The translations under genes and the position numbers were made by a program. Below are positions 38,460 to 60,296 of a DNA stretch of 64,000 nt, piece by piece. The first letter of the stretch is position 1. Each line of letters starts with the position of its first letter. The stretch lies in sequence record ON528727. The stretch is one strand, 5' to 3'. Source of the DNA: Shigella phage ESh17. The notes under the pieces are model-generated. The model saw only the letters and a list, made by a program, of their open reading frames with translations. It made no database searches and was not told the DNA's origin.

Positions 38460-39168
<709 letters not shown>

Positions 39169-39175
<7 letters not shown>

Positions 39176-39198
39176 CGCTGATGAGGTAGTGATACTAT
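39169..39198 (+). promoter_or_regulatory. early promoter (GTTTAC -35, N18, TACTAT -10) enclosed in a stem-loop
   Basis: GTTTAC / TGATACTAT; inverted repeat gatgag...ctcatc around the -10. Confidence 0.6.
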
Positions 39199-39228
39199 TA
39201 TCTCATCAAAATTAATTAGGAAAATAAA

Positions 39229-39486
39229 ATGAAAACTTTCAAAGAGTTTGCTACAAAAACTACTATCACCGAATCTTCCCACGGTATGGAAGTAAAGCTT
39301 GGAATGGCTTTAGCTGAAGCTGAGCGTCTTTTCTCTCGTATTAAAGAACTTGCTGCTGCAGTCGATCCTTCATCTTTTAAAGGAGACCAAACTAAAGTTA
39401 AAGCGCTTTTAGCATTATGCTCTGATGCAGGCGAAATCGCTAAGAACGGTTCTAAGATGAAGAAACGATTAGAAGATTTAAAATAA
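39229..39486 (+). CDS. internal-protein-like head protein with capsid-targeting-sequence-like N-terminus, 85 aa (ipI position)
   Basis: begins MKTFKEFATKTTITE; position between 57B and the tRNA region. Confidence 0.6.
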   Translation: MKTFKEFATKTTITESSHGMEVKLGMALAEAERLFSRIKELAAAVDPSSFKGDQTKVKALLALCSDAGEIAKNGSKMKKRLEDLK

Positions 39487-39505
39487 TTTCACAAAGTTGT
39501 TTACA
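39475..39505 (+). repeat. 31-bp perfect direct repeat, copy 2
   Basis: identical to 39145-39175. Confidence 0.9.
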
Positions 39506-39528
39506 TAGGGTTTTAGTTGTGATACTAT
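39499..39528 (+). promoter_or_regulatory. early promoter, duplicate of the one at 39169
   Basis: GTTTAC / TGATACTAT; stem atagggt...accctat. Confidence 0.6.
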
Positions 39529-39556
39529 TACCCTATCAACTACTGAGGAGAATAAA

Positions 39557-39742
39557 ATGAAACGTTGTGAATTAATTCGAAATGTTGCTATTGCAATTTC
39601 TGCTTCCGCTTTTAGTTTTTCAATGTTTGTTGGATTTATATGCGGATTATTAACTACAGCAGAAAATGTGTTTTCGCTTGTAGTAGCATTTTTAATTGGT
39701 TTAATCGCTATCGTTATGGATAAAATTTCTAAAGGTGAATAA
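39557..39742 (+). CDS. small two-helix membrane protein, 61 aa
   Basis: GAGGAG SD; two hydrophobic helices. Confidence 0.5.
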   Translation: MKRCELIRNVAIAISASAFSFSMFVGFICGLLTTAENVFSLVVAFLIGLIAIVMDKISKGE

Positions 39743-40153
39743 ATGAGTATTAACGAATATTATGTTTATGCCGGGGATTATGCAAATCCTTCTCATTTTG
39801 AAGGTAATTTAATACCTGATAAAGTTTTTAATACTCCTTTTGAAGCGTGGAGTTGGATTGAAAGTAAAAATGGATTTTCTTACCGTTATGTTGAAGTAAC
39901 TGATTGGAGAGGAACTAAATATCCTAAAGACCATTATTACGTAAATCCATCTAAGGTAAATTTTCTTTTATTCGCAGGTGATAATTATTATCCTTGCGGT
40001 GGATATGATGATTTAATTGCGTATGCTGAAACAGAAGATAAGCTGCGTGATATCATTAAAGAAAATGAAAATAAACTAGATTATGGTTCCAATCGTTTCG
40101 ACTGGTGGCAAATCGTAAATGCCCATACTCATGCTATCGTTGATAGAGGCTGA
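39743..40153 (+). CDS. hypothetical protein, 136 aa
   Basis: ATG after AAAGGTGA; start overlaps previous stop. Confidence 0.5.
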   Translation: MSINEYYVYAGDYANPSHFEGNLIPDKVFNTPFEAWSWIESKNGFSYRYVEVTDWRGTKYPKDHYYVNPSKVNFLLFAGDNYYPCGGYDDLIAYAETEDKLRDIIKENENKLDYGSNRFDWWQIVNAHTHAIVDRG

Positions 40154-40176
40154 CAATGATTCTTTATGCTAAAGTA
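40151..40176 (+). repeat. 26-bp direct repeat copy 1 (stop/start junction), 24/26 identical to 40606-40631
   Basis: tgacaatgattctttatgctaaagta versus tgataatgattctttatgcaaaagta. Confidence 0.85.
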
Positions 40177-40203
40177 CTACCTTATAGGAATGATATTGCT
40201 TAA
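40156..40203 (+). pseudogene. 15-codon remnant ORF duplicating the 5' end of the gene at 40611
   Basis: MILYAKV then divergence and stop; same first 7 codons as the 40611 gene. Confidence 0.45.
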
Positions 40204-40227
40204 ATTAATATTGAGGTAGCTGAGACT

Positions 40228-40608
40228 ATGAAATTAATTAAATCGGGTGGAACCAGATGGGTACTACTAACACGTAAGTATGCTATTAAGTTCCCTATCC
40301 CCAAGACATGGAAACACTTCGTGCAGGGTATGCTCAGCAATCTTACAGAAGGTCAGTGGAAGGGGTATGATAACAAGCACCTATGCCCGATAGCATACTC
40401 AAACAGATTTGGTCTCATGGTTGTGATGCACAAAGCAGAGCCAGTTGAGGATAAGGAGCTTTTTAAATCTGATTTGCAAAAGCTCTATAATGATGTTGAT
40501 GGTGATGAATGTAGAACGCTTGACCGTGATTTCTTTGAGTATGATGCCTTTCCAAAGAACTTTGGCTACTACAAAGGTAGATTGGTCAAGATAGACTACG
40601 GAGTGTGA
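40228..40608 (+). CDS. hypothetical protein on an inserted cassette, 126 aa
   Basis: ORF with noticeably more G/C-ending codons than its neighbours; bracketed by the 26-bp direct repeats. Confidence 0.5.
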   Translation: MKLIKSGGTRWVLLTRKYAIKFPIPKTWKHFVQGMLSNLTEGQWKGYDNKHLCPIAYSNRFGLMVVMHKAEPVEDKELFKSDLQKLYNDVDGDECRTLDRDFFEYDAFPKNFGYYKGRLVKIDYGV

Positions 40609-40631
40609 TAATGATTCTTTATGCAAAAGTA
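40606..40631 (+). repeat. 26-bp direct repeat copy 2
   Basis: see copy 1. Confidence 0.85.
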
Positions 40632-40904
40632 TCATCCATTGAAAATGGATATAAATATGATCAAGACGCGGCTAAAGCCTTGATCGATGATTATGGCGTT
40701 TTAACGTGTTTTGAAGTTGAAAAGGTTTATGTTGACCGTTCATCTTCTCAAGTTAAATTAGTGAAGGAAGACCGTAAATTTAATACAGTAAATTTTGATT
40801 TCTTTATTGAAACGGAAAAAGGTCCTCTTGAATATGATATTTTCAAGAATCCTTTGGGTCTTGAATGTATTGAATATACTTACATTAATATGGTGAGCAA
40901 ATGA
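40611..40904 (+). CDS. hypothetical protein, 97 aa
   Basis: start at ATG 40611 (MILYAKVSSIENGY...); ORF-track start 40605 is GTG. Confidence 0.5.
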   Translation: MILYAKVSSIENGYKYDQDAAKALIDDYGVLTCFEVEKVYVDRSSSQVKLVKEDRKFNTVNFDFFIETEKGPLEYDIFKNPLGLECIEYTYINMVSK

Positions 40905-41416
40905 ATATTTGTTTAGGTACTACAATTCCGCAGGGTTATGTGATTGATGTAACTACATGGGAAAATGACGGTGACAACTATAAAACCAAAACATTGTTTG
41001 GTGTAGAAGAGAATGAAATCTTACAATTCCAATATCTTTTAAAGAAGTTTAAAAGTAGACATTCTAGCACAAAAGTTGAACGTTATTGCGGTAATGGCTT
41101 GTTCAGCGAGCAATCGCTTTTTATCTATGAATACTTGGTTGAAGGACTGTTCTCAGACCAGCTTTATCCAGAATTCATTAAAAAGGTCTTTGATATAGAA
41201 GTTGACCTTGGTAATAAATCTGAAGAAGATGAAGAACGTGTATTTGACTTATTCTTTGTGAATGGTAATAAAGTGCTTGAAGGACTTATTAATATTTTAG
41301 GCAGTGCTTCTGAATATTATGATTATGATTTTCTGCGCGTAGTTGAGAGTGTTAAATACTCTTATATAGAAAAAGAAATTGTTTTGCCGACTGTTAAAAT
41401 GTTTAATTTGCTTTAA
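40901..41416 (+). CDS. hypothetical acidic protein, 171 aa
   Basis: ATGA overlap with previous gene. Confidence 0.5.
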   Translation: MNICLGTTIPQGYVIDVTTWENDGDNYKTKTLFGVEENEILQFQYLLKKFKSRHSSTKVERYCGNGLFSEQSLFIYEYLVEGLFSDQLYPEFIKKVFDIEVDLGNKSEEDEERVFDLFFVNGNKVLEGLINILGSASEYYDYDFLRVVESVKYSYIEKEIVLPTVKMFNLL

Positions 41417-41502: not shown

Positions 41503-41575
41503 TGGGAATTAGCCAAGTTGGTAAGGCACTGGATTTTGATTCCAGGATGCAAAGGTTCGAGTCCTTTATTCCCAG
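41503..41575 (+). tRNA. tRNA-Gln (anticodon UUG)
   Basis: cloverleaf folded by hand; 7-bp acceptor tgggaat/attccca; anticodon loop ttTTGat; GGTTCGAGTCC T-arm. Confidence 0.8.
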
Positions 41576-41576
41576 C

Positions 41577-41663
41577 GCGAGAATGGTCAAATTGGTAAAG
41601 GCACAGCACTTAAAATGCTGCGGAATGATTTCCTTGTGGGTTCGAGTCCCACTTCTCGCACCA
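41577..41663 (+). tRNA. tRNA-Leu (UAA), type II with long variable arm
   Basis: acceptor gcgagaa/ttctcgc; loop ctTAAaa; encoded CCA. Confidence 0.8.
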
Positions 41664-41668
41664 AATTT

Positions 41669-41742
<74 letters not shown>

Positions 41743-41752
41743 ATTTAATTTA

Positions 41753-41826
41753 CTCCGTGTAGCTCAGTTTGGTAGAGCGCCTGATTTGGGATCAGGAGGT
41801 CCAAGGTTCAAATCCTTGTATGGAGA
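41753..41826 (+). tRNA. tRNA-Pro (UGG)
   Basis: acceptor ctccgtg/tatggag; loop ttTGGga. Confidence 0.8.
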
Positions 41827-41828
41827 CT

Positions 41829-41918
41829 GGAGGCGTGGCAGAGTGGTTTAATGCACCGGTCTTGAAAACCGGCAGTCGCTCCGGCGACTCATAGGTTCAA
41901 ATCCTATCGCCTCCGCCA
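41829..41918 (+). tRNA. tRNA-Ser (UGA), type II
   Basis: acceptor ggaggcg/cgcctcc; loop ctTGAaa; long variable arm; encoded CCA. Confidence 0.8.
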
Positions 41919-41924
41919 GTTTTT

Positions 41925-42000
41925 GCTGATTTAGCTCAGTAGGTAGAGCAACTCACTTGTAATGAGAAGGTCGGCGGTTCGATTCCGTCAATCAGCACCA
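41925..42000 (+). tRNA. tRNA-Thr (UGU)
   Basis: acceptor gctgatt/aatcagc; loop ctTGTaa; encoded CCA. Confidence 0.8.
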
Positions 42001-42001
42001 A

Positions 42002-42076
42002 GGCCCTGTAGCTGGAAGGTTCAAGCAAGCGACTCATAATCGCCAGATGGTGGTTCAATTCCACCCAGGGCCACCA
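42002..42076 (+). tRNA. tRNA with CAU anticodon (Ile2 lysidine-type or Met)
   Basis: acceptor ggccctg/cagggcc; loop ctCATaa; encoded CCA. Confidence 0.75.
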
Positions 42077-42088
42077 AATTATGAATTA

Positions 42089-42175
42089 GGGGAGTTATCC
42101 CGTAGAGGTAGCGGTGTGGACTGTAAATCCATTGTCATTGCGACTCGGGTGGTTCGACTCCATCACTCCCCACCA
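42089..42175 (+). tRNA. tRNA-Tyr-like (GUA), type II, with irregular acceptor/D-arm junction
   Basis: perfect 7-bp acceptor ggggagt/actcccc, anticodon stem-loop gtgga-ctGTAaa-tccat, long variable arm, T-arm ggtgg-ttcgact-ccatc, CCA; but 4 nt rather than 2 between acceptor and D-stem. Confidence 0.5.
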
Positions 42176-42179
42176 ATTT

Positions 42180-42254
42180 GGATGTGTAGCTCAGTGGTAG
42201 AGCAGTTGACTGTTAATCAATTGGTCCATGGTTCGAATCCATGCATGTCCGCCA
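42180..42254 (+). tRNA. tRNA-Asn (GUU)
   Basis: acceptor ggatgtg/catgtcc; D-arm gctc-agtggta-gagc; loop ctGTTaa; encoded CCA. Confidence 0.75.
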
Positions 42255-42368
42255 AATTTGTGACAACTGTCACATTAATATCTACTTGACGCGATTATAA
42301 GGGTTGAACTGATCACTCTTCTCTTAATTTCGTGTGAAGACATCTTGATTGTTGGAGTAGGTATTAAT

Positions 42369-42444
42369 GTGGCCGTAGTTCAGTTGGTAGAACTCGAGAT
42401 TGTGATTCTCGTAGTCATGGGTTCGACTCCCATCGGTCACCCCA
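42369..42444 (+). tRNA. tRNA-His (GUG); no encoded G-1
   Basis: acceptor gtggccg/cggtcac; loop ttGTGat; discriminator C; encoded CCA. Confidence 0.7.
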
Positions 42445-42448
42445 ATTA

Positions 42449-42524
42449 CGGGGCATAGCTCAGAAGGAAGAGCAAGGACCTTCTAAGTCCTAGGTCGTAG
42501 GTTCGATCCCTACTGCCTCGACCA
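42449..42524 (+). tRNA. tRNA-Arg (UCU)
   Basis: acceptor cggggca/tgcctcg; loop ctTCTaa; encoded CCA. Confidence 0.8.
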
Positions 42525-42894: not shown

Positions 42895-43200
42895 AAACCG
42901 GGTCGCTACCGGTAAGTCGTCGGACTGATGTTCCCTGAGTAAGGAATTGCGTTAATAATCTTTGCGTTTATTGATGCCCTCTTACATCACAGCAGAAACG
43001 GCGCACCGAATTATCGATTCGAGGAAATATCTTTGCCGTAAGCCGAGTAGCGTTTTTGACGGAACGTTCGGATATGGTCGAGATATGGCCTTTTAAAAAT
43101 ATTGAGTAGCGTCAACTGCTTAATAACCGGGTTCGAATCCCGGCGTTTCGTACAAACACTTGCCTTAGCAGGTGGAACCCCGACAAGGTTGCCGCAAGGC
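42895..43200 (+). ncRNA. candidate stable small RNA region, GC-elevated and structured, with a tRNA-like T-arm (possibly analogous to T4 species RNAs C/D)
   Basis: no ORF; palindromic hairpin at 42897-42913; ccggg-ttcgaat-cccgg T-arm at 43127-43143 with 7-bp acceptor-like pairing 43060-43066/43144-43150. Confidence 0.3.
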
Positions 43201-43230
43201 TTAGCCCCAGCCGAAAGGTTGGGGCTTTTT
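43201..43230 (+). terminator. intrinsic terminator (GAAA tetraloop hairpin plus T5), copy 1
   Basis: ttagccccagccgaaaggttggggcttttt. Confidence 0.8.
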
Positions 43231-43232
43231 AG

Positions 43233-43240
43233 TATAAATA
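43233..43240 (+). promoter_or_regulatory. late promoter TATAAATA for the internal-protein-like gene at 43277
   Basis: exact TATAAATA 37 nt upstream of the ATG. Confidence 0.55.
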
Positions 43241-43276
43241 AGTATATTAAATCTACAAATTAAAACAGGAAATAAG

Positions 43277-43750
43277 ATGAAATCATATACTCAATTTTTA
43301 AATGAAGCGGTGTTAAATGAAGCGTCTAGCACCGAAATTCAAGCTGTCGCAAAAGCAGCCATTGCAGCGGGTAAATATTCCTATAAAGATGCTTCTGATG
43401 AATCACGATTCCAATTTGCTCGCGACATGAAAGCAGAAGGATTTACGGGGAATGCTGTTAGTATGGCCTGGAAAAGTTTAGTTGCTACTGGCGCTGCTTT
43501 TGCAAAGGCTTCGGGTAAACCTGCTCCTAAAGCAGATCCTAAAGTCACACAAGAGAAAAATATCGTTAAAGGAATTATCTCCAAATATGAAGCTATCCTT
43601 AAAGAGCTTTTAGTAATCAAAACTGAAGGCCAAAAGCTAGCTCGTGCTTATAGTTTCAAAGATAACCCACATGCTCACTCTCTTGAGTATGTTGAAGACA
43701 TCCAAAAAATTATTAAAGACCGCATTTGGTCTGCTAAACAAATCAAATAA
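43277..43750 (+). CDS. internal-protein-like protein with variant capsid-targeting-sequence N-terminus, 157 aa
   Basis: begins MKSYTQFLNEA; Ala/Lys-rich; own late promoter; flanked by duplicated terminators. Confidence 0.55.
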   Translation: MKSYTQFLNEAVLNEASSTEIQAVAKAAIAAGKYSYKDASDESRFQFARDMKAEGFTGNAVSMAWKSLVATGAAFAKASGKPAPKADPKVTQEKNIVKGIISKYEAILKELLVIKTEGQKLARAYSFKDNPHAHSLEYVEDIQKIIKDRIWSAKQIK

Positions 43751-43755
43751 CATTC

Positions 43756-43785
43756 TTAGCCCTAGCCGAAAGGTTGGGGCTTTTT
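43756..43785 (+). terminator. intrinsic terminator, copy 2 (29/30 identical to 43201-43230)
   Basis: ttagccctagccgaaaggttggggcttttt. Confidence 0.8.
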
Positions 43786-43918
43786 GGTATCTAGGCCTTT
43801 CCAGGCCTCTCTAGACATCATTTAGTTTCTACCCTTTATAATATATTATCCTATCCTTTGATTTCCCCTCCCTGCCCTAGAATTCCCCAAAACTTTTTAA
43901 AAATTTTTTCACAAAACG

Positions 43919-58799: not shown

Positions 58800-58829
58800 G
58801 TTTACAGGCATAAAGCTTTATGGTACTAT
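58800..58829 (+). promoter_or_regulatory. early promoter with conserved leader tggtactatacaactatcaact
   Basis: GTTTAC, N18, TACTAT. Confidence 0.6.
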
Positions 58830-58863
58830 ACAACTATCAACTGATACGGATTTGGAGAATAAA

Positions 58864-59832
58864 ATGAAAACTGTAACTATCAATAAGGGTATCTACTTCG
58901 GTAAAGAAATCTCTGGAACTTTTGAGCTCTTAGGTGAATGGTTCCCAGATAATGCTCCGGTGGATGCACAAGGAGATGGTAAAGTTTTTGTTGAAATTGA
59001 CGGTAAGCGTCGCGGTGTTTGGGTTTACAAATCAGACATTTCATATGATGGTGTAAAAGTTGAAGAAGTTAAAGAATCATATGAAGATATGAAAACCCGC
59101 ATTAATAAAAGATTTAATGTTATGGGAATGATGACGAATGGTATTATTAACGGAAACATTCGTTCATTAATTATCTCTGGTGCGGCAGGCATTGGTAAAA
59201 CGTATTCTTTAGATAAAGCTTTAAATAAAGCAAATGATATTGGATACATTGAATATAAAAGCATTAACGGTAAAATCTCTGGTATCGGTCTTTATGAACA
59301 GCTCTGGAATAATCGTGAAGAGAATTCTGTCCTTTTGATTGATGATGTGGATGTTTTCTCTGATATGGACATTCTTAATCTTTTGAAAGCTGCTCTGGAC
59401 ACTGGAGAGACCCGTAAAGTCTGCTGGAGCACTGCATCTTCTTACTTAGAAGAAAAAGGCATTGAGCGTGAGTTTGAATTTAAAGGAACGATTGTTTTTA
59501 TCACAAACGTTGACATTGACCGCGAATTAGACCGTGGTACTAAACTTGCTCCACATTTACAAGCATTAGTTTCCCGCTCGGTTTATTTAGATTTGGGTGT
59601 TCACACTAATGAAGAAATTATGGTCAGGGTTGAAGATGTTATTCTTTCAACCGACATGATGCAAAAGCGTGGTCTTTCTGATGAAGAAACTTATAAAGCA
59701 TTATCATGGATGAAAGTCAATGTTAATCGTTTACGCAATGTTTCACTGCGTACTGCTCTTTATCTTGCTGACTTTATTATGACCGACAAAAATGGTTGGG
59801 AAGAAATTGCTGAGGTTACTCTTCTGAAATAA
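58864..59832 (+). CDS. AAA+-type P-loop ATPase, 322 aa
   Basis: start ATG 58864 after GGAGAA; Walker A GAAGIGKT, Walker B VLLIDDVD, sensor-1-like FITN; ORF-track N-terminal extension crosses a terminator and promoter. Confidence 0.55.
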   Translation: MKTVTINKGIYFGKEISGTFELLGEWFPDNAPVDAQGDGKVFVEIDGKRRGVWVYKSDISYDGVKVEEVKESYEDMKTRINKRFNVMGMMTNGIINGNIRSLIISGAAGIGKTYSLDKALNKANDIGYIEYKSINGKISGIGLYEQLWNNREENSVLLIDDVDVFSDMDILNLLKAALDTGETRKVCWSTASSYLEEKGIEREFEFKGTIVFITNVDIDRELDRGTKLAPHLQALVSRSVYLDLGVHTNEEIMVRVEDVILSTDMMQKRGLSDEETYKALSWMKVNVNRLRNVSLRTALYLADFIMTDKNGWEEIAEVTLLK

Positions 59833-59933
59833 TTCATAAGAGGCCTTCTATGACAAAAAGGCAGTTCAGAAATAGATTATATGGACTGCCATTAAAAAGA
59901 TGACTAGAATTAAACTGGTAAATGGAGGTAGTG

Positions 59934-60236
59934 ATGTTATACTCAAAGGCTCGTGAAATTTACGAAACTAAAATTAAAGAAGCAGTATTTCAGTTCGCAA
60001 CAACGATGCGATGGACAAATGATTGGGAATACTCCAAGAATCATAAGAAGCCCTTGGTGACAAGAAAGGCTCATATGTTAGTGTTAATAGACCGTGAGCA
60101 GATTAAAGCCCGAGAAGCCCTCCAGAATCATAAAAAGGCTGCCTTTGAATGGTTTATGGATAACACTGCTCCTGAGACTAAGAAAGCAGTGAGCGCGTGG
60201 TTCAGTGGAAAAAATTGTGAAAGAAGTTTCTTTTAG
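59934..60236 (+). CDS. hypothetical basic protein, 100 aa
   Basis: ATG 59934 after GGAGGT; in-frame upstream ATG at 59922 is an alternative start. Confidence 0.4.
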   Translation: MLYSKAREIYETKIKEAVFQFATTMRWTNDWEYSKNHKKPLVTRKAHMLVLIDREQIKAREALQNHKKAAFEWFMDNTAPETKKAVSAWFSGKNCERSFF

Positions 60237-60238
60237 TT

Positions 60239-60268
60239 GTTTACAAGACTGTTCCTCCATGGTACTAT
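60239..60268 (+). promoter_or_regulatory. early promoter with conserved leader, inside a 9-bp inverted repeat
   Basis: GTTTAC, N18, TACTAT; tgttcctcc ... ggaggaaca. Confidence 0.6.
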
Positions 60269-60296
60269 ACAACTATCAACTACGGAGGAACAGAAA

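Follow-up and report, generated by a model that had tools for sequence, protein, structure and literature searches.

In the genome of Shigella phage ESh17 (sequence record ON528727), an open reading frame of 126 codons (ORF126; 40228-40608) lies between the homologues of two small T-even phage genes, tRNA.3 and tRNA.2, and is bracketed by two copies of a 26-bp sequence. We consider it probable that a 455-bp foreign segment, consisting of a 5' leader of about 57 nt and the 126-codon gene, was captured once at the tRNA.3/tRNA.2 junction through two staggered joins at short microhomologies, and that its cargo is a protein with a kinase-like fold. The analysis covered a stretch of 64,000 nt, hereafter called the window, to which all coordinates refer. 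The genes and junction features of this locus all lie on its plus strand.

Junction repeats and the empty site

The left copy of the repeat (TGACAATGATTCTTTATGCTAAAGTA; 40151-40176) is made up of the tRNA.3 stop codon, 2 nt and codons 1-7 of tRNA.2, and the right copy (TGATAATGATTCTTTATGCAAAAGTA; 40606-40631) contains the TGA stop codon of ORF126, 2 nt and the start of the intact tRNA.2. The copies share 24 of their 26 positions and differ only at repeat positions 4 and 20. In a direct-repeat search the match is longer, at 31 nt with 87% identity (40146-40176 and 40601-40631), and the copies are spaced 455 nt apart. When the surrounding 1.3 kb was simulated 200 times with a first-order Markov model, the best direct match between 26-mers had a mean of 18.5 and a maximum of 21 identical positions, and the 26-bp repeat that an earlier note on this DNA had placed at a stop/start junction is therefore well founded. 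Across the whole window, the pair is one of about 20 direct-repeat families of at least 20 nt that recur within 3 kb. No inverted repeats were found within or beside the 26-bp copies or at the ends of the insert. Likewise, no promoter-like site was found in the left copy (40146-40176); a single weak site (40583-40612), matching at 9 of 12 positions, extends into the right copy but has no counterpart in the left, and the overall number of such sites is at shuffle expectation.

The most direct evidence for an insertion comes from relatives that lack it. A 2-kb query around the site matched 838 phage records, only two of which cover the site fully, and a tighter query matched 769 records, including 9 with a filled site that represent seven distinct phages and RefSeq duplicates. 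About 760 related records are empty and carry a single copy of the junction. Alignment with RB32 and TadeuszReichstein reveals a clean empty site with one copy of the 26-mer (...GATAGAGGCTGATAATGATTCTTTATGCTAAAGTATCATCC...), and the single-copy junction (...GAGGCTGATAATGATTCTTTATGCTAAAGTATCATCC...) is also present in T6, PST and about 500 more records. The flanks are adjacent even in relatives that are only about 80% identical, such as Yersinia phages and AV120. These single-copy sites in T-even relatives bear out the earlier proposal of an insertion at a gene junction that duplicated its target. An exact-pattern scan of IMG/VR returned no matches to the filled left junction and three contigs with the empty junction, all of which have TGAT alleles.

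The filled site, with identical junctions and 98.8-99.6% identity over 481 bp, was found only in QOTSP, EL, PhiZZ30, PaulHMueller, G10400, G4507 and ECP52. The insertion is thus not private to the ESh17 genome, since seven relatives carry identical junctions. The backgrounds of the filled genomes differ in their internal protein (ip) genes, in a homologue of the downstream 171-codon gene (ORF171) that may be present, absent or split, and in the homing-endonuclease genes of the tRNA cluster. Their flanks show a mosaic pattern of single-nucleotide differences that comes as close as about 60 nt to the insert. The earlier note held that the same arrangement in relatives with diverged flanks would speak against a recent insertion, and such sharing does exist in part, in that the junctions of these seven phages are identical and the local backgrounds are not. 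Because identical junctions occur in different backgrounds, the comparison indicates one insertion event that was followed by spread among T-even phages through recombination.

The two mismatches between the repeat copies were considered as a measure of the age of the insertion, and this use of them was rejected. Repeat positions 4 and 20 are also polymorphic among empty sites (GCT, GCA and GCG; TGAT, TGAC and TAAT) and the flanks are mosaic, so that age cannot be read from these differences.

The remnant reading frame and the imported leader

A reading frame of 15 codons begins in the left repeat copy (40156-40203, with its ATG at 40156 and its TAA at 40201-40203) and reads MILYAKVLPYRNDIA. 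According to the earlier note this frame decays after the repeat, a description that must be replaced, since past repeat position 26 the frame switches into sequence that belongs to the insert. When positions 40170-40227 are compared without gaps to the leader of the ORF126 homologue in phage phi G17, 41 of 58 positions match (71%, p about 2e-10), whereas the 30 nt further upstream match at 9 of 30 positions, which is the chance level. A single blastn alignment with phi G17 spans 40171-40616 and thereby reaches 57 nt 5' of ORF126. Because homology to the phi G17 leader begins near 40170 and is at chance level before that point, the tail of the remnant is imported leader. The frame is thus a chimera, in which codons 1-7 are those of tRNA.2 and the last eight codons (8-15) are the 5' leader of the donor read in the tRNA.2 frame. 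A frameshifted or decayed copy of tRNA.2 was considered for 40177-40203 and rejected, as this segment can be aligned to the leader in phi G17 but not to tRNA.2. The imported leader as a whole (40170-40227) includes a ribosome-binding region (TTGAGGT...GAGACT). Beyond phi G17, no shared leader was found among the contexts of the homologues P0002 (85%), P0003 (83%), P0005, P0007, P0013 and P0016.

Foreign origin of the gene

The G+C content at third codon positions (GC3) is 0.449 in ORF126, compared to 0.13-0.27 in ten neighbouring genes, and is the highest among the 75 open reading frames of at least 90 amino acids in the window (mean 0.248, z = 4.2), which confirms that the gene is distinct in composition. 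Homologues of ORF126 have GC3 values of 0.42-0.53 and reside in phages of about 40-43% GC, and both the GC content and the GC3 of ORF126 are like those of its homologues and not like those of its T-even host. The view of the earlier note that the gene is of foreign origin is thus upheld, since it has kept the GC3 of homologues from phages of this composition.

At protein identities of at least 95%, tblastn locates ORF126 only at this one T-even site. The next best protein matches are in the rV5-like phages A5-4 and A7_1 (78% amino acid identity) and the N4-like phages phi G17 and Moonfish (74%), with further matches in GaoY1-9D and in the Salmonella phages SWJM-02 and vB_SalM_SPJ41 (genomes of 85-90 kb, 61%). 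Many jumbo phages carry homologues of about 40% amino acid identity, and FelixO1-like phages have homologues as well. At the nucleotide level, the nearest relatives of the reading frame are 72-86% identical and belong to unrelated phages that are mostly N4-like, including phi G17, Moonfish and metagenomic N4-like contigs, together with the rV5-like A7_1. The closest of these (85.6%) is a short metagenomic contig (L010) whose upstream sequence is of N4-like type, and one metagenomic relative adjoins a Phage_N4_Gp1 gene. In phi G17, A7_1, Moonfish and the metagenomic contigs, the homologues are part of ordinary gene arrays and have no flanking repeats. A protein-guided search for further loci yielded nothing in IMG/VR and only two loci, at 66-73% identity, in the metagenome collection. 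Overall, the donor was most likely an unrelated coliphage of about 40-43% GC with an N4-like lineage (Schitoviridae, Gamaleyavirus-type) that infected the same host.

Proposed capture mechanism

The two junctions retain enough sequence to suggest how the segment was joined. At the left junction (about 40170-40178; CTAAAGTAC), identity to the recipient stops at ...GCTAAAGTA, immediately before TC, and identity to donor-type sequence starts at C.AAAG.AC, where phi G17 reads CCAAAGCAC. At the right junction (40606-40616; TGAnnATGATT), donor-like 3' ends read TGACTATGATT, and in donor-type phages the stop codon of the reading frame overlaps the start of the next gene, as is the case for phi G17 (GTATGACTATGATTAT) and A7_1 (GTTTGACTATGAATAT); the recipient reads GGCTGATAATGATT. 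The short match spans about 8-9 nt at the left join and 9-11 nt at the right join, and the exact extent of both is inferred from relatives because the true donor was not found. Only about 7 nt of the repeat (CTTTATG) are outside the two blocks of microhomology, and both repeat mismatches fall inside these blocks, as would be expected if they are donor bases.

In the proposed course of events, the left join would lead from T-even ...GCTAAAGTA, seven codons into tRNA.2, to the donor leader at C.AAAG.AC, and the right join would lead from the donor stop/start overlap TGAnnATGATT back into T-even TGATAATGATT. On the recipient, the right join lies 26 nt upstream of the left join, and for this reason the same 26 bp are present on both sides of the insert. 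Thus, the duplication of the target that the earlier note described is real, but it is better explained by staggered microhomology joins than by a target-site duplication of the kind left by transposition. The segment was most likely joined in the course of T4 recombination-dependent replication, through either microhomology-guided template switching or illegitimate recombination. Of the two we favour template switching, in which a T-even 3' end would prime on a DNA fragment of a co-infecting phage, copy the leader and the gene, and then switch back to the T-even template. Copying of this kind would also turn foreign cytosine DNA into phage-modified DNA, as would be anticipated from established T4 biology.

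The capture has preserved the translational organization of the locus. The stop/2-nt/start arrangement is kept at both repeats and the insert carries its own ribosome-binding region. The tRNA.3 stop codon still overlaps a start codon, which is now that of the 15-codon chimeric peptide. Within the last codons of ORF126 (GGAGTG), a GGAG located 7 nt before the tRNA.2 ATG stands in place of the original GAGG. The end of ORF126 and its stop codon in this way recreate both a motif like that of Shine and Dalgarno (SD) and the stop/2-nt/start coupling for tRNA.2, and all genes would stay expressed. The cassette would later have moved among T-even phages by homologous recombination in its flanks, and possibly also by way of the 26-bp repeats.

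Later mobility and alternative explanations

Certain observations weigh against this account of the capture. The true donor has not been encountered; the best match to the reading frame (85.6%) has a different leader, and phi G17 shares the leader but has a reading frame that is only 74% identical. Furthermore, illegitimate recombination by breakage and joining would leave the same scar as template switching. Lastly, the alleles of two phages, PaulHMueller and LF82-9, are equally compatible with excision and integration of a circle via the repeats. The window and six of the seven filled GenBank genomes have TGAC..GCT in the left copy and TGAT..GCA in the right copy, and PaulHMueller has TGAT..GCT in both copies and thus a 26/26 repeat. 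The empty site of LF82-9 (PV660452.1, 2501-2578) is 100% identical over 78 nt to a chimera of the left 5' and right 3' portions (TGAC..GCA), from which all other empty sites differ. These alleles fit LF82-9 as a recipient lineage, LF82-9 as a product of precise excision, or the integration of a TGAT..GCT circle into different alleles. Although the record of LF82-9 is assigned to Mosigvirus, its sequence in this region is about 98% identical to that of Tequatrovirus phages, and the genome is thus locally mosaic.

Circle-mediated (Campbell-type) integration would account for these alleles in another manner. A small circle carrying ORF126 and one 26-bp copy would enter by a single crossover, within 26 bp of homology, at the resident junction, and this would naturally place repeats in direct orientation around a single gene, as in the PeSL mini-circle model for RB49/phi1. 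In six of the seven filled genomes, the alleles are those expected if a TGAT..GCT circle and a TGAC..GCA recipient crossed over somewhere from position 4 to position 20, and the latter allele, that of the recipient or the excision product, exists in exactly one empty genome, LF82-9. Also, the flanks of PaulHMueller are nearly identical to those of the empty-site phage TadeuszReichstein, which has TGAT..GCT, and mini-circles of the PeSL type have been demonstrated by experiment in T4-type phages (PMC2839356). The same alleles can, however, be explained by ordinary recombination in the flanks, whose fine mosaic shows changes as near as about 60 nt from the insert, or by bases derived from the donor. 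Efficient T4 recombination is moreover said, in work by Singer and colleagues in 1982, to need homology far longer than 26 bp. The first joining of the foreign gene to T-even sequence is left unexplained, and integration from a circle is not the primary capture because the circle must already hold T-even sequence. As a full explanation it is therefore unlikely, with perhaps a minor share of our confidence, but it could be a route by which T-even genomes exchange the cassette and lose it again.

Much less credible is the possibility that ORF126 and the duplicated junction were present in a T-even ancestor and were mostly lost through deletion between the repeats. Recombination between the repeats would restore exactly the observed empty junction, and the LF82-9 chimera is compatible with such a loss. 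However, only 9 of the 769 records are filled and relatives of about 80% identity are empty. A long-resident gene is also difficult to reconcile with a GC3 that is 4.2 standard deviations above that of the genes of this genome and equals that of homologues in other phage families, with a 5' leader homologous to that of an N4-like phage, and with insert copies that are 98.8-99.6% identical and have diverged no more than their flanks. Moreover, the copy of tRNA.2 codons 1-7 upstream of ORF126 is itself the scar of an insertion.

A mobile element that makes a target-site duplication through a 26-nt staggered cut, whether a transposon, a miniature element or a homing-endonuclease cassette, is slightly harder still to accept. 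In its favour, direct repeats surround an insert of distinct composition, and relatives commonly have free-standing homing endonuclease genes at a distance of 1-2 kb, but the tRNA cluster of the window itself has no endonuclease gene and the insert ends have no terminal inverted repeats. The sole open reading frame has a predicted kinase fold and no match to a transposase, an integrase or an HNH or GIY-YIG protein in Pfam, PHROG or NCBIfam. Homologues in other phages are without flanking repeats, T-even copies occupy one site only, and no copies of the 429-455-bp unit were found at other genomic sites. To our knowledge, 26 bp also far exceeds typical target-site duplications. Finally, short repeats can mislead assemblers, but an assembly or chimerism artefact is ruled out for practical purposes because the identical structure, with differing flanks, is present in seven phages from Switzerland, the UK, Germany and elsewhere whose genomes were sequenced independently.

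Fold, family and conservation of the cargo protein

The close homologues of ORF126 are all 120-128 amino acids in length. From an exhaustive profile search, a family of 1030 cluster representatives emerges at E<=1e-3, of which 440 also pass E<=1e-10, and nearly all are 110-135 amino acids long. An AlphaFold2 model of ORF126 based on a 38-sequence alignment has a pLDDT of 92 and a pTM of 0.80, and kinases are among its Foldseek matches in the PDB and in viral models. The predicted elements correspond to those of a protein-kinase-like fold, with a five-stranded N-lobe that includes helix C, a hinge, the strands of the catalytic loop and a Mg-binding loop.

Conservation within the family agrees with the positions that such a fold would require. 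Residues G7, R10, V12, K21, P23, E41 and D123 do not vary among 66 diverse members (28-49% identity). At position 106, 43 of these members have D and 23 have E, and at position 111, 44 have N and 21 have S. By predicted secondary structure, K21 is the beta-3 Lys, E41 is the helix-C Glu, positions 106 and 111 are the Asp and Asn of the catalytic loop, and D123 is the DFG-type Asp. A Lys is found at position 108 in most family members and at position 110 in ORF126. The chain ends at the point where an activation segment would be expected to start: 62 of the 66 members end 2-3 residues after D123, ORF126 ends 3 residues after it, and the C-lobe beyond the DFG motif (activation segment and helices F to I) is missing.

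The sequence searches are less encouraging and count against the kinase assignment. The best Pfam match is DUF3440 at a sub-threshold E = 0.087, and no kinase family was linked to the protein there. Searches of NCBIfam and PADLOC were negative, and a sequence-profile search of the PDB gave no matches at E<=10. When hhalign was run against an approximate PknB sequence, only IDYGV was aligned to MDFGI, which is not significant (E = 0.6). In addition, we know of no description of an active kinase without the alpha-F helix and the remainder of the C-lobe, and the ORF126 protein may for this reason require a partner or be limited to nucleotide binding. The protein is assigned to PHROG 4301, a family of no known function, and the GenBank entry of one homologue calls it a 'STE family protein kinase catalytic domain'. 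The view of the earlier note that the function is unknown must be amended to the extent that a truncated protein-kinase fold is predicted.

Known minimal kinases provide a useful comparison. The bacterial effector kinases OspG/NleH and HopBF1 and the small archaeal kinases Bud32, Rio and Ark1 are 170-270 amino acids long and extend well past the DFG motif, whereas members of the ORF126 family have about 120 amino acids. ORF126 resembles OspG/NleH and HopBF1 in its predicted fold, but it has no C-lobe and no profile similarity to them, and no sequence-profile link to any of these kinases was found. On the basis of the model, the family may represent a novel variant of the kinase fold, and the ORF126 product is predicted to bind ATP and Mg. 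It is possibly a phosphotransferase expressed early in infection that acts as an oligomer or with a partner, or else a nucleotide-binding accessory factor. A role in host take-over or counter-defence is predicted.

Genomic setting

The window is from a T-even (Tequatrovirus-type) genome, and by the annotation of relatives the insert is situated in the region upstream of the tRNA cluster. The gene order on the plus strand is a deoxynucleoside monophosphate kinase gene, 57A, 57B, an ip5-like gene, tRNA.4 (39557-39742), tRNA.3, the insert, tRNA.2, a gene like RB32ORF135c, and 11 tRNA genes. Both resident neighbours of the insert are named from the RB32 annotation. The upstream gene is the tRNA.3 homologue (39743-40153; 136 amino acids, PHROG 1411), whose TGA stop codon at 40151-40153 opens the left repeat, and the intact downstream gene is the tRNA.2 homologue (40611-40904; 97 amino acids, PHROG 2023).

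A site resembling an early promoter (39500-39528; TTTACA, 17 nt, TACTAT and a TG extension) is found upstream of tRNA.4 within a promoter-bearing repeat, and is the likely promoter of the operon that now holds the insert. No terminator-like sites were predicted between 39100 and 41097. Because a promoter-like site precedes tRNA.4 and no terminator-like site intervenes before 41097, ORF126 probably belongs to an early transcript that extends into the tRNA genes.

The surrounding region is variable among relatives. The gene like RB32ORF135c (40901-41416; 171 amino acids, PHROG 2290) is present in the window, PaulHMueller, LF82-9, RB32 and TadeuszReichstein, missing from T6, PhiZZ30, EL, G10400 and ECP52, and split in two in QOTSP. 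The cluster of 11 tRNA genes (41503-42524) contains no homing-endonuclease gene in the window; close relatives have segB-like or other endonuclease genes at varying positions in the cluster, and their tRNA complements differ. The internal-protein slot (39229-39486) holds an ip5-like gene of 85 amino acids and not ipI, and three different ip arrangements exist among the relatives that bear the insert.

Two other repeat pairs were observed in the window. Copies of a 43-nt promoter-like repeat (GTTTACA...TGGTACTATACAACTATCAACT, 79% identity) at 58800-58842 and 60239-60281 enclose about 1.4 kb, and between them is an open reading frame of 104 amino acids (59922-60236; PHROG 1931, function unknown) with the second highest GC3 of the window (0.429). 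This stretch (58800-60281) may be another acquired cassette. Just 3' of the tRNA cluster, a 36-nt GC-rich hairpin followed by a T-run, which resembles a terminator, is duplicated at 43200-43235 and 43755-43790 (94% identity, 555 bp apart), and the pair (43200-43790) may bracket another small cassette.

Comparison with known systems

Among the closest parallels are the PeSL cassettes and mini-circles (Arbiol et al. 2010, PMC2839356; Comeau et al. 2014, PMC4122927), which likewise involve a single accessory open reading frame in a hyperplastic region of a T4-type genome. As in those systems, ORF126 is present or absent between close relatives and is flanked by direct repeats whose recombination would release it as a precisely excised circle or put it back. 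The repeats of PeSL cassettes are regulatory modules with an early promoter, a stem-loop terminator, an SD sequence and an ATG (PMC2839356, PMC4122927). In contrast, the ORF126 repeat is a promoter-less 26-bp coding junction (stop, 2 nt and seven codons) without a stem-loop, and it arose from the insertion itself and is not a dispersed motif that existed beforehand.

The ip gene cassettes of T-even phages share the neighbourhood of ORF126, about 600 bp upstream, and are also gene-sized and bracketed by direct repeats. Cassettes of internal-protein genes flanked by repeats were reportedly described in T-even phages by Repoila and colleagues in 1994, and the GenBank notes for RB32 list 43-bp direct repeats around Ip7/Ip9. 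In the window, direct repeats of about 94 nt (39141-39234 and 39471-39562, 81% identity) flank the ip5-like gene at 39229-39486. Each includes an early-promoter-like site (TTTACA-17-TACTAT; 39170-39198 and 39500-39528), an SD sequence and ATGAAA, and has a 7-bp stem around the -10 hexamer with a compensatory difference between copies (TGATGAG..CTCATCA versus ATAGGGT..ACCCTAT). By these sequence features, the ip5 locus is a regulatory-repeat cassette of the PeSL and ip-locus type that adjoins the promoter-less repeat of ORF126. The ip repeats bring early promoters and allow swapping of ip genes that are native to T-even phages, whereas the ORF126 repeats have no promoter and enclose cargo from outside the T4 superfamily.

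Phage T4 is well known for template switching and illegitimate recombination at microhomologies, and also for deletion and duplication end-points at short repeats and join-copy replication. The ORF126 junctions conform to this pattern, in that they fall in matches of 8-11 nt and the duplication is what two staggered switches would produce. The classical T4 cases are intragenomic deletions and duplications, whereas here the partner would be an unrelated co-infecting phage and the outcome a gain of a gene that keeps translational coupling on both sides. A search for literature on phage 'minimal kinases' or on microhomology-mediated gene capture in T4-like phages returned nothing specific.

Significance

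Gene gain in the hyperplastic regions of T4-type phages, cassettes flanked by repeats, and illegitimate recombination at short matches are all established, and in this respect the ORF126 insertion is ordinary but unusually legible. The scars of primary capture seldom display both junctions, the empty site, a leader of the donor type and preserved translational coupling together. The locus is therefore a useful worked example of how a phage with modified DNA gains a gene from an unrelated co-infecting phage. The insert is annotated in deposited genomes as a 'hypothetical protein', and no description of it was found. An experimental pair is available in the BASEL collection, where PaulHMueller (Bas45) carries the insert and TadeuszReichstein (Bas43) does not, and the two are very similar across about 900 nt of compared flank.

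The cargo is more interesting than its insertion, as it belongs to a family of more than 1000 unannotated clusters with a confidently predicted kinase fold, residues of catalytic type and no C-lobe. Because its genes sit in the early regions of many phage lineages, the family is a candidate accessory or counter-defence factor. A more ambitious reading, which the models and sequences permit us to hold only as a long shot, is that these proteins form a class, not described before, of catalytically active half-kinases of about 120 amino acids with an N-lobe, a catalytic loop and a DFG-like Asp but without a C-lobe, swapped as an early takeover or counter-defence gene by T4-like, N4-like, rV5-like, FelixO1-like and jumbo phages, and that the T-even copy is a promoter-less mini-circle cassette that excises itself. 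If true, a self-excising cassette of this type would extend PeSL shuffling to repeats that are created by insertion itself.

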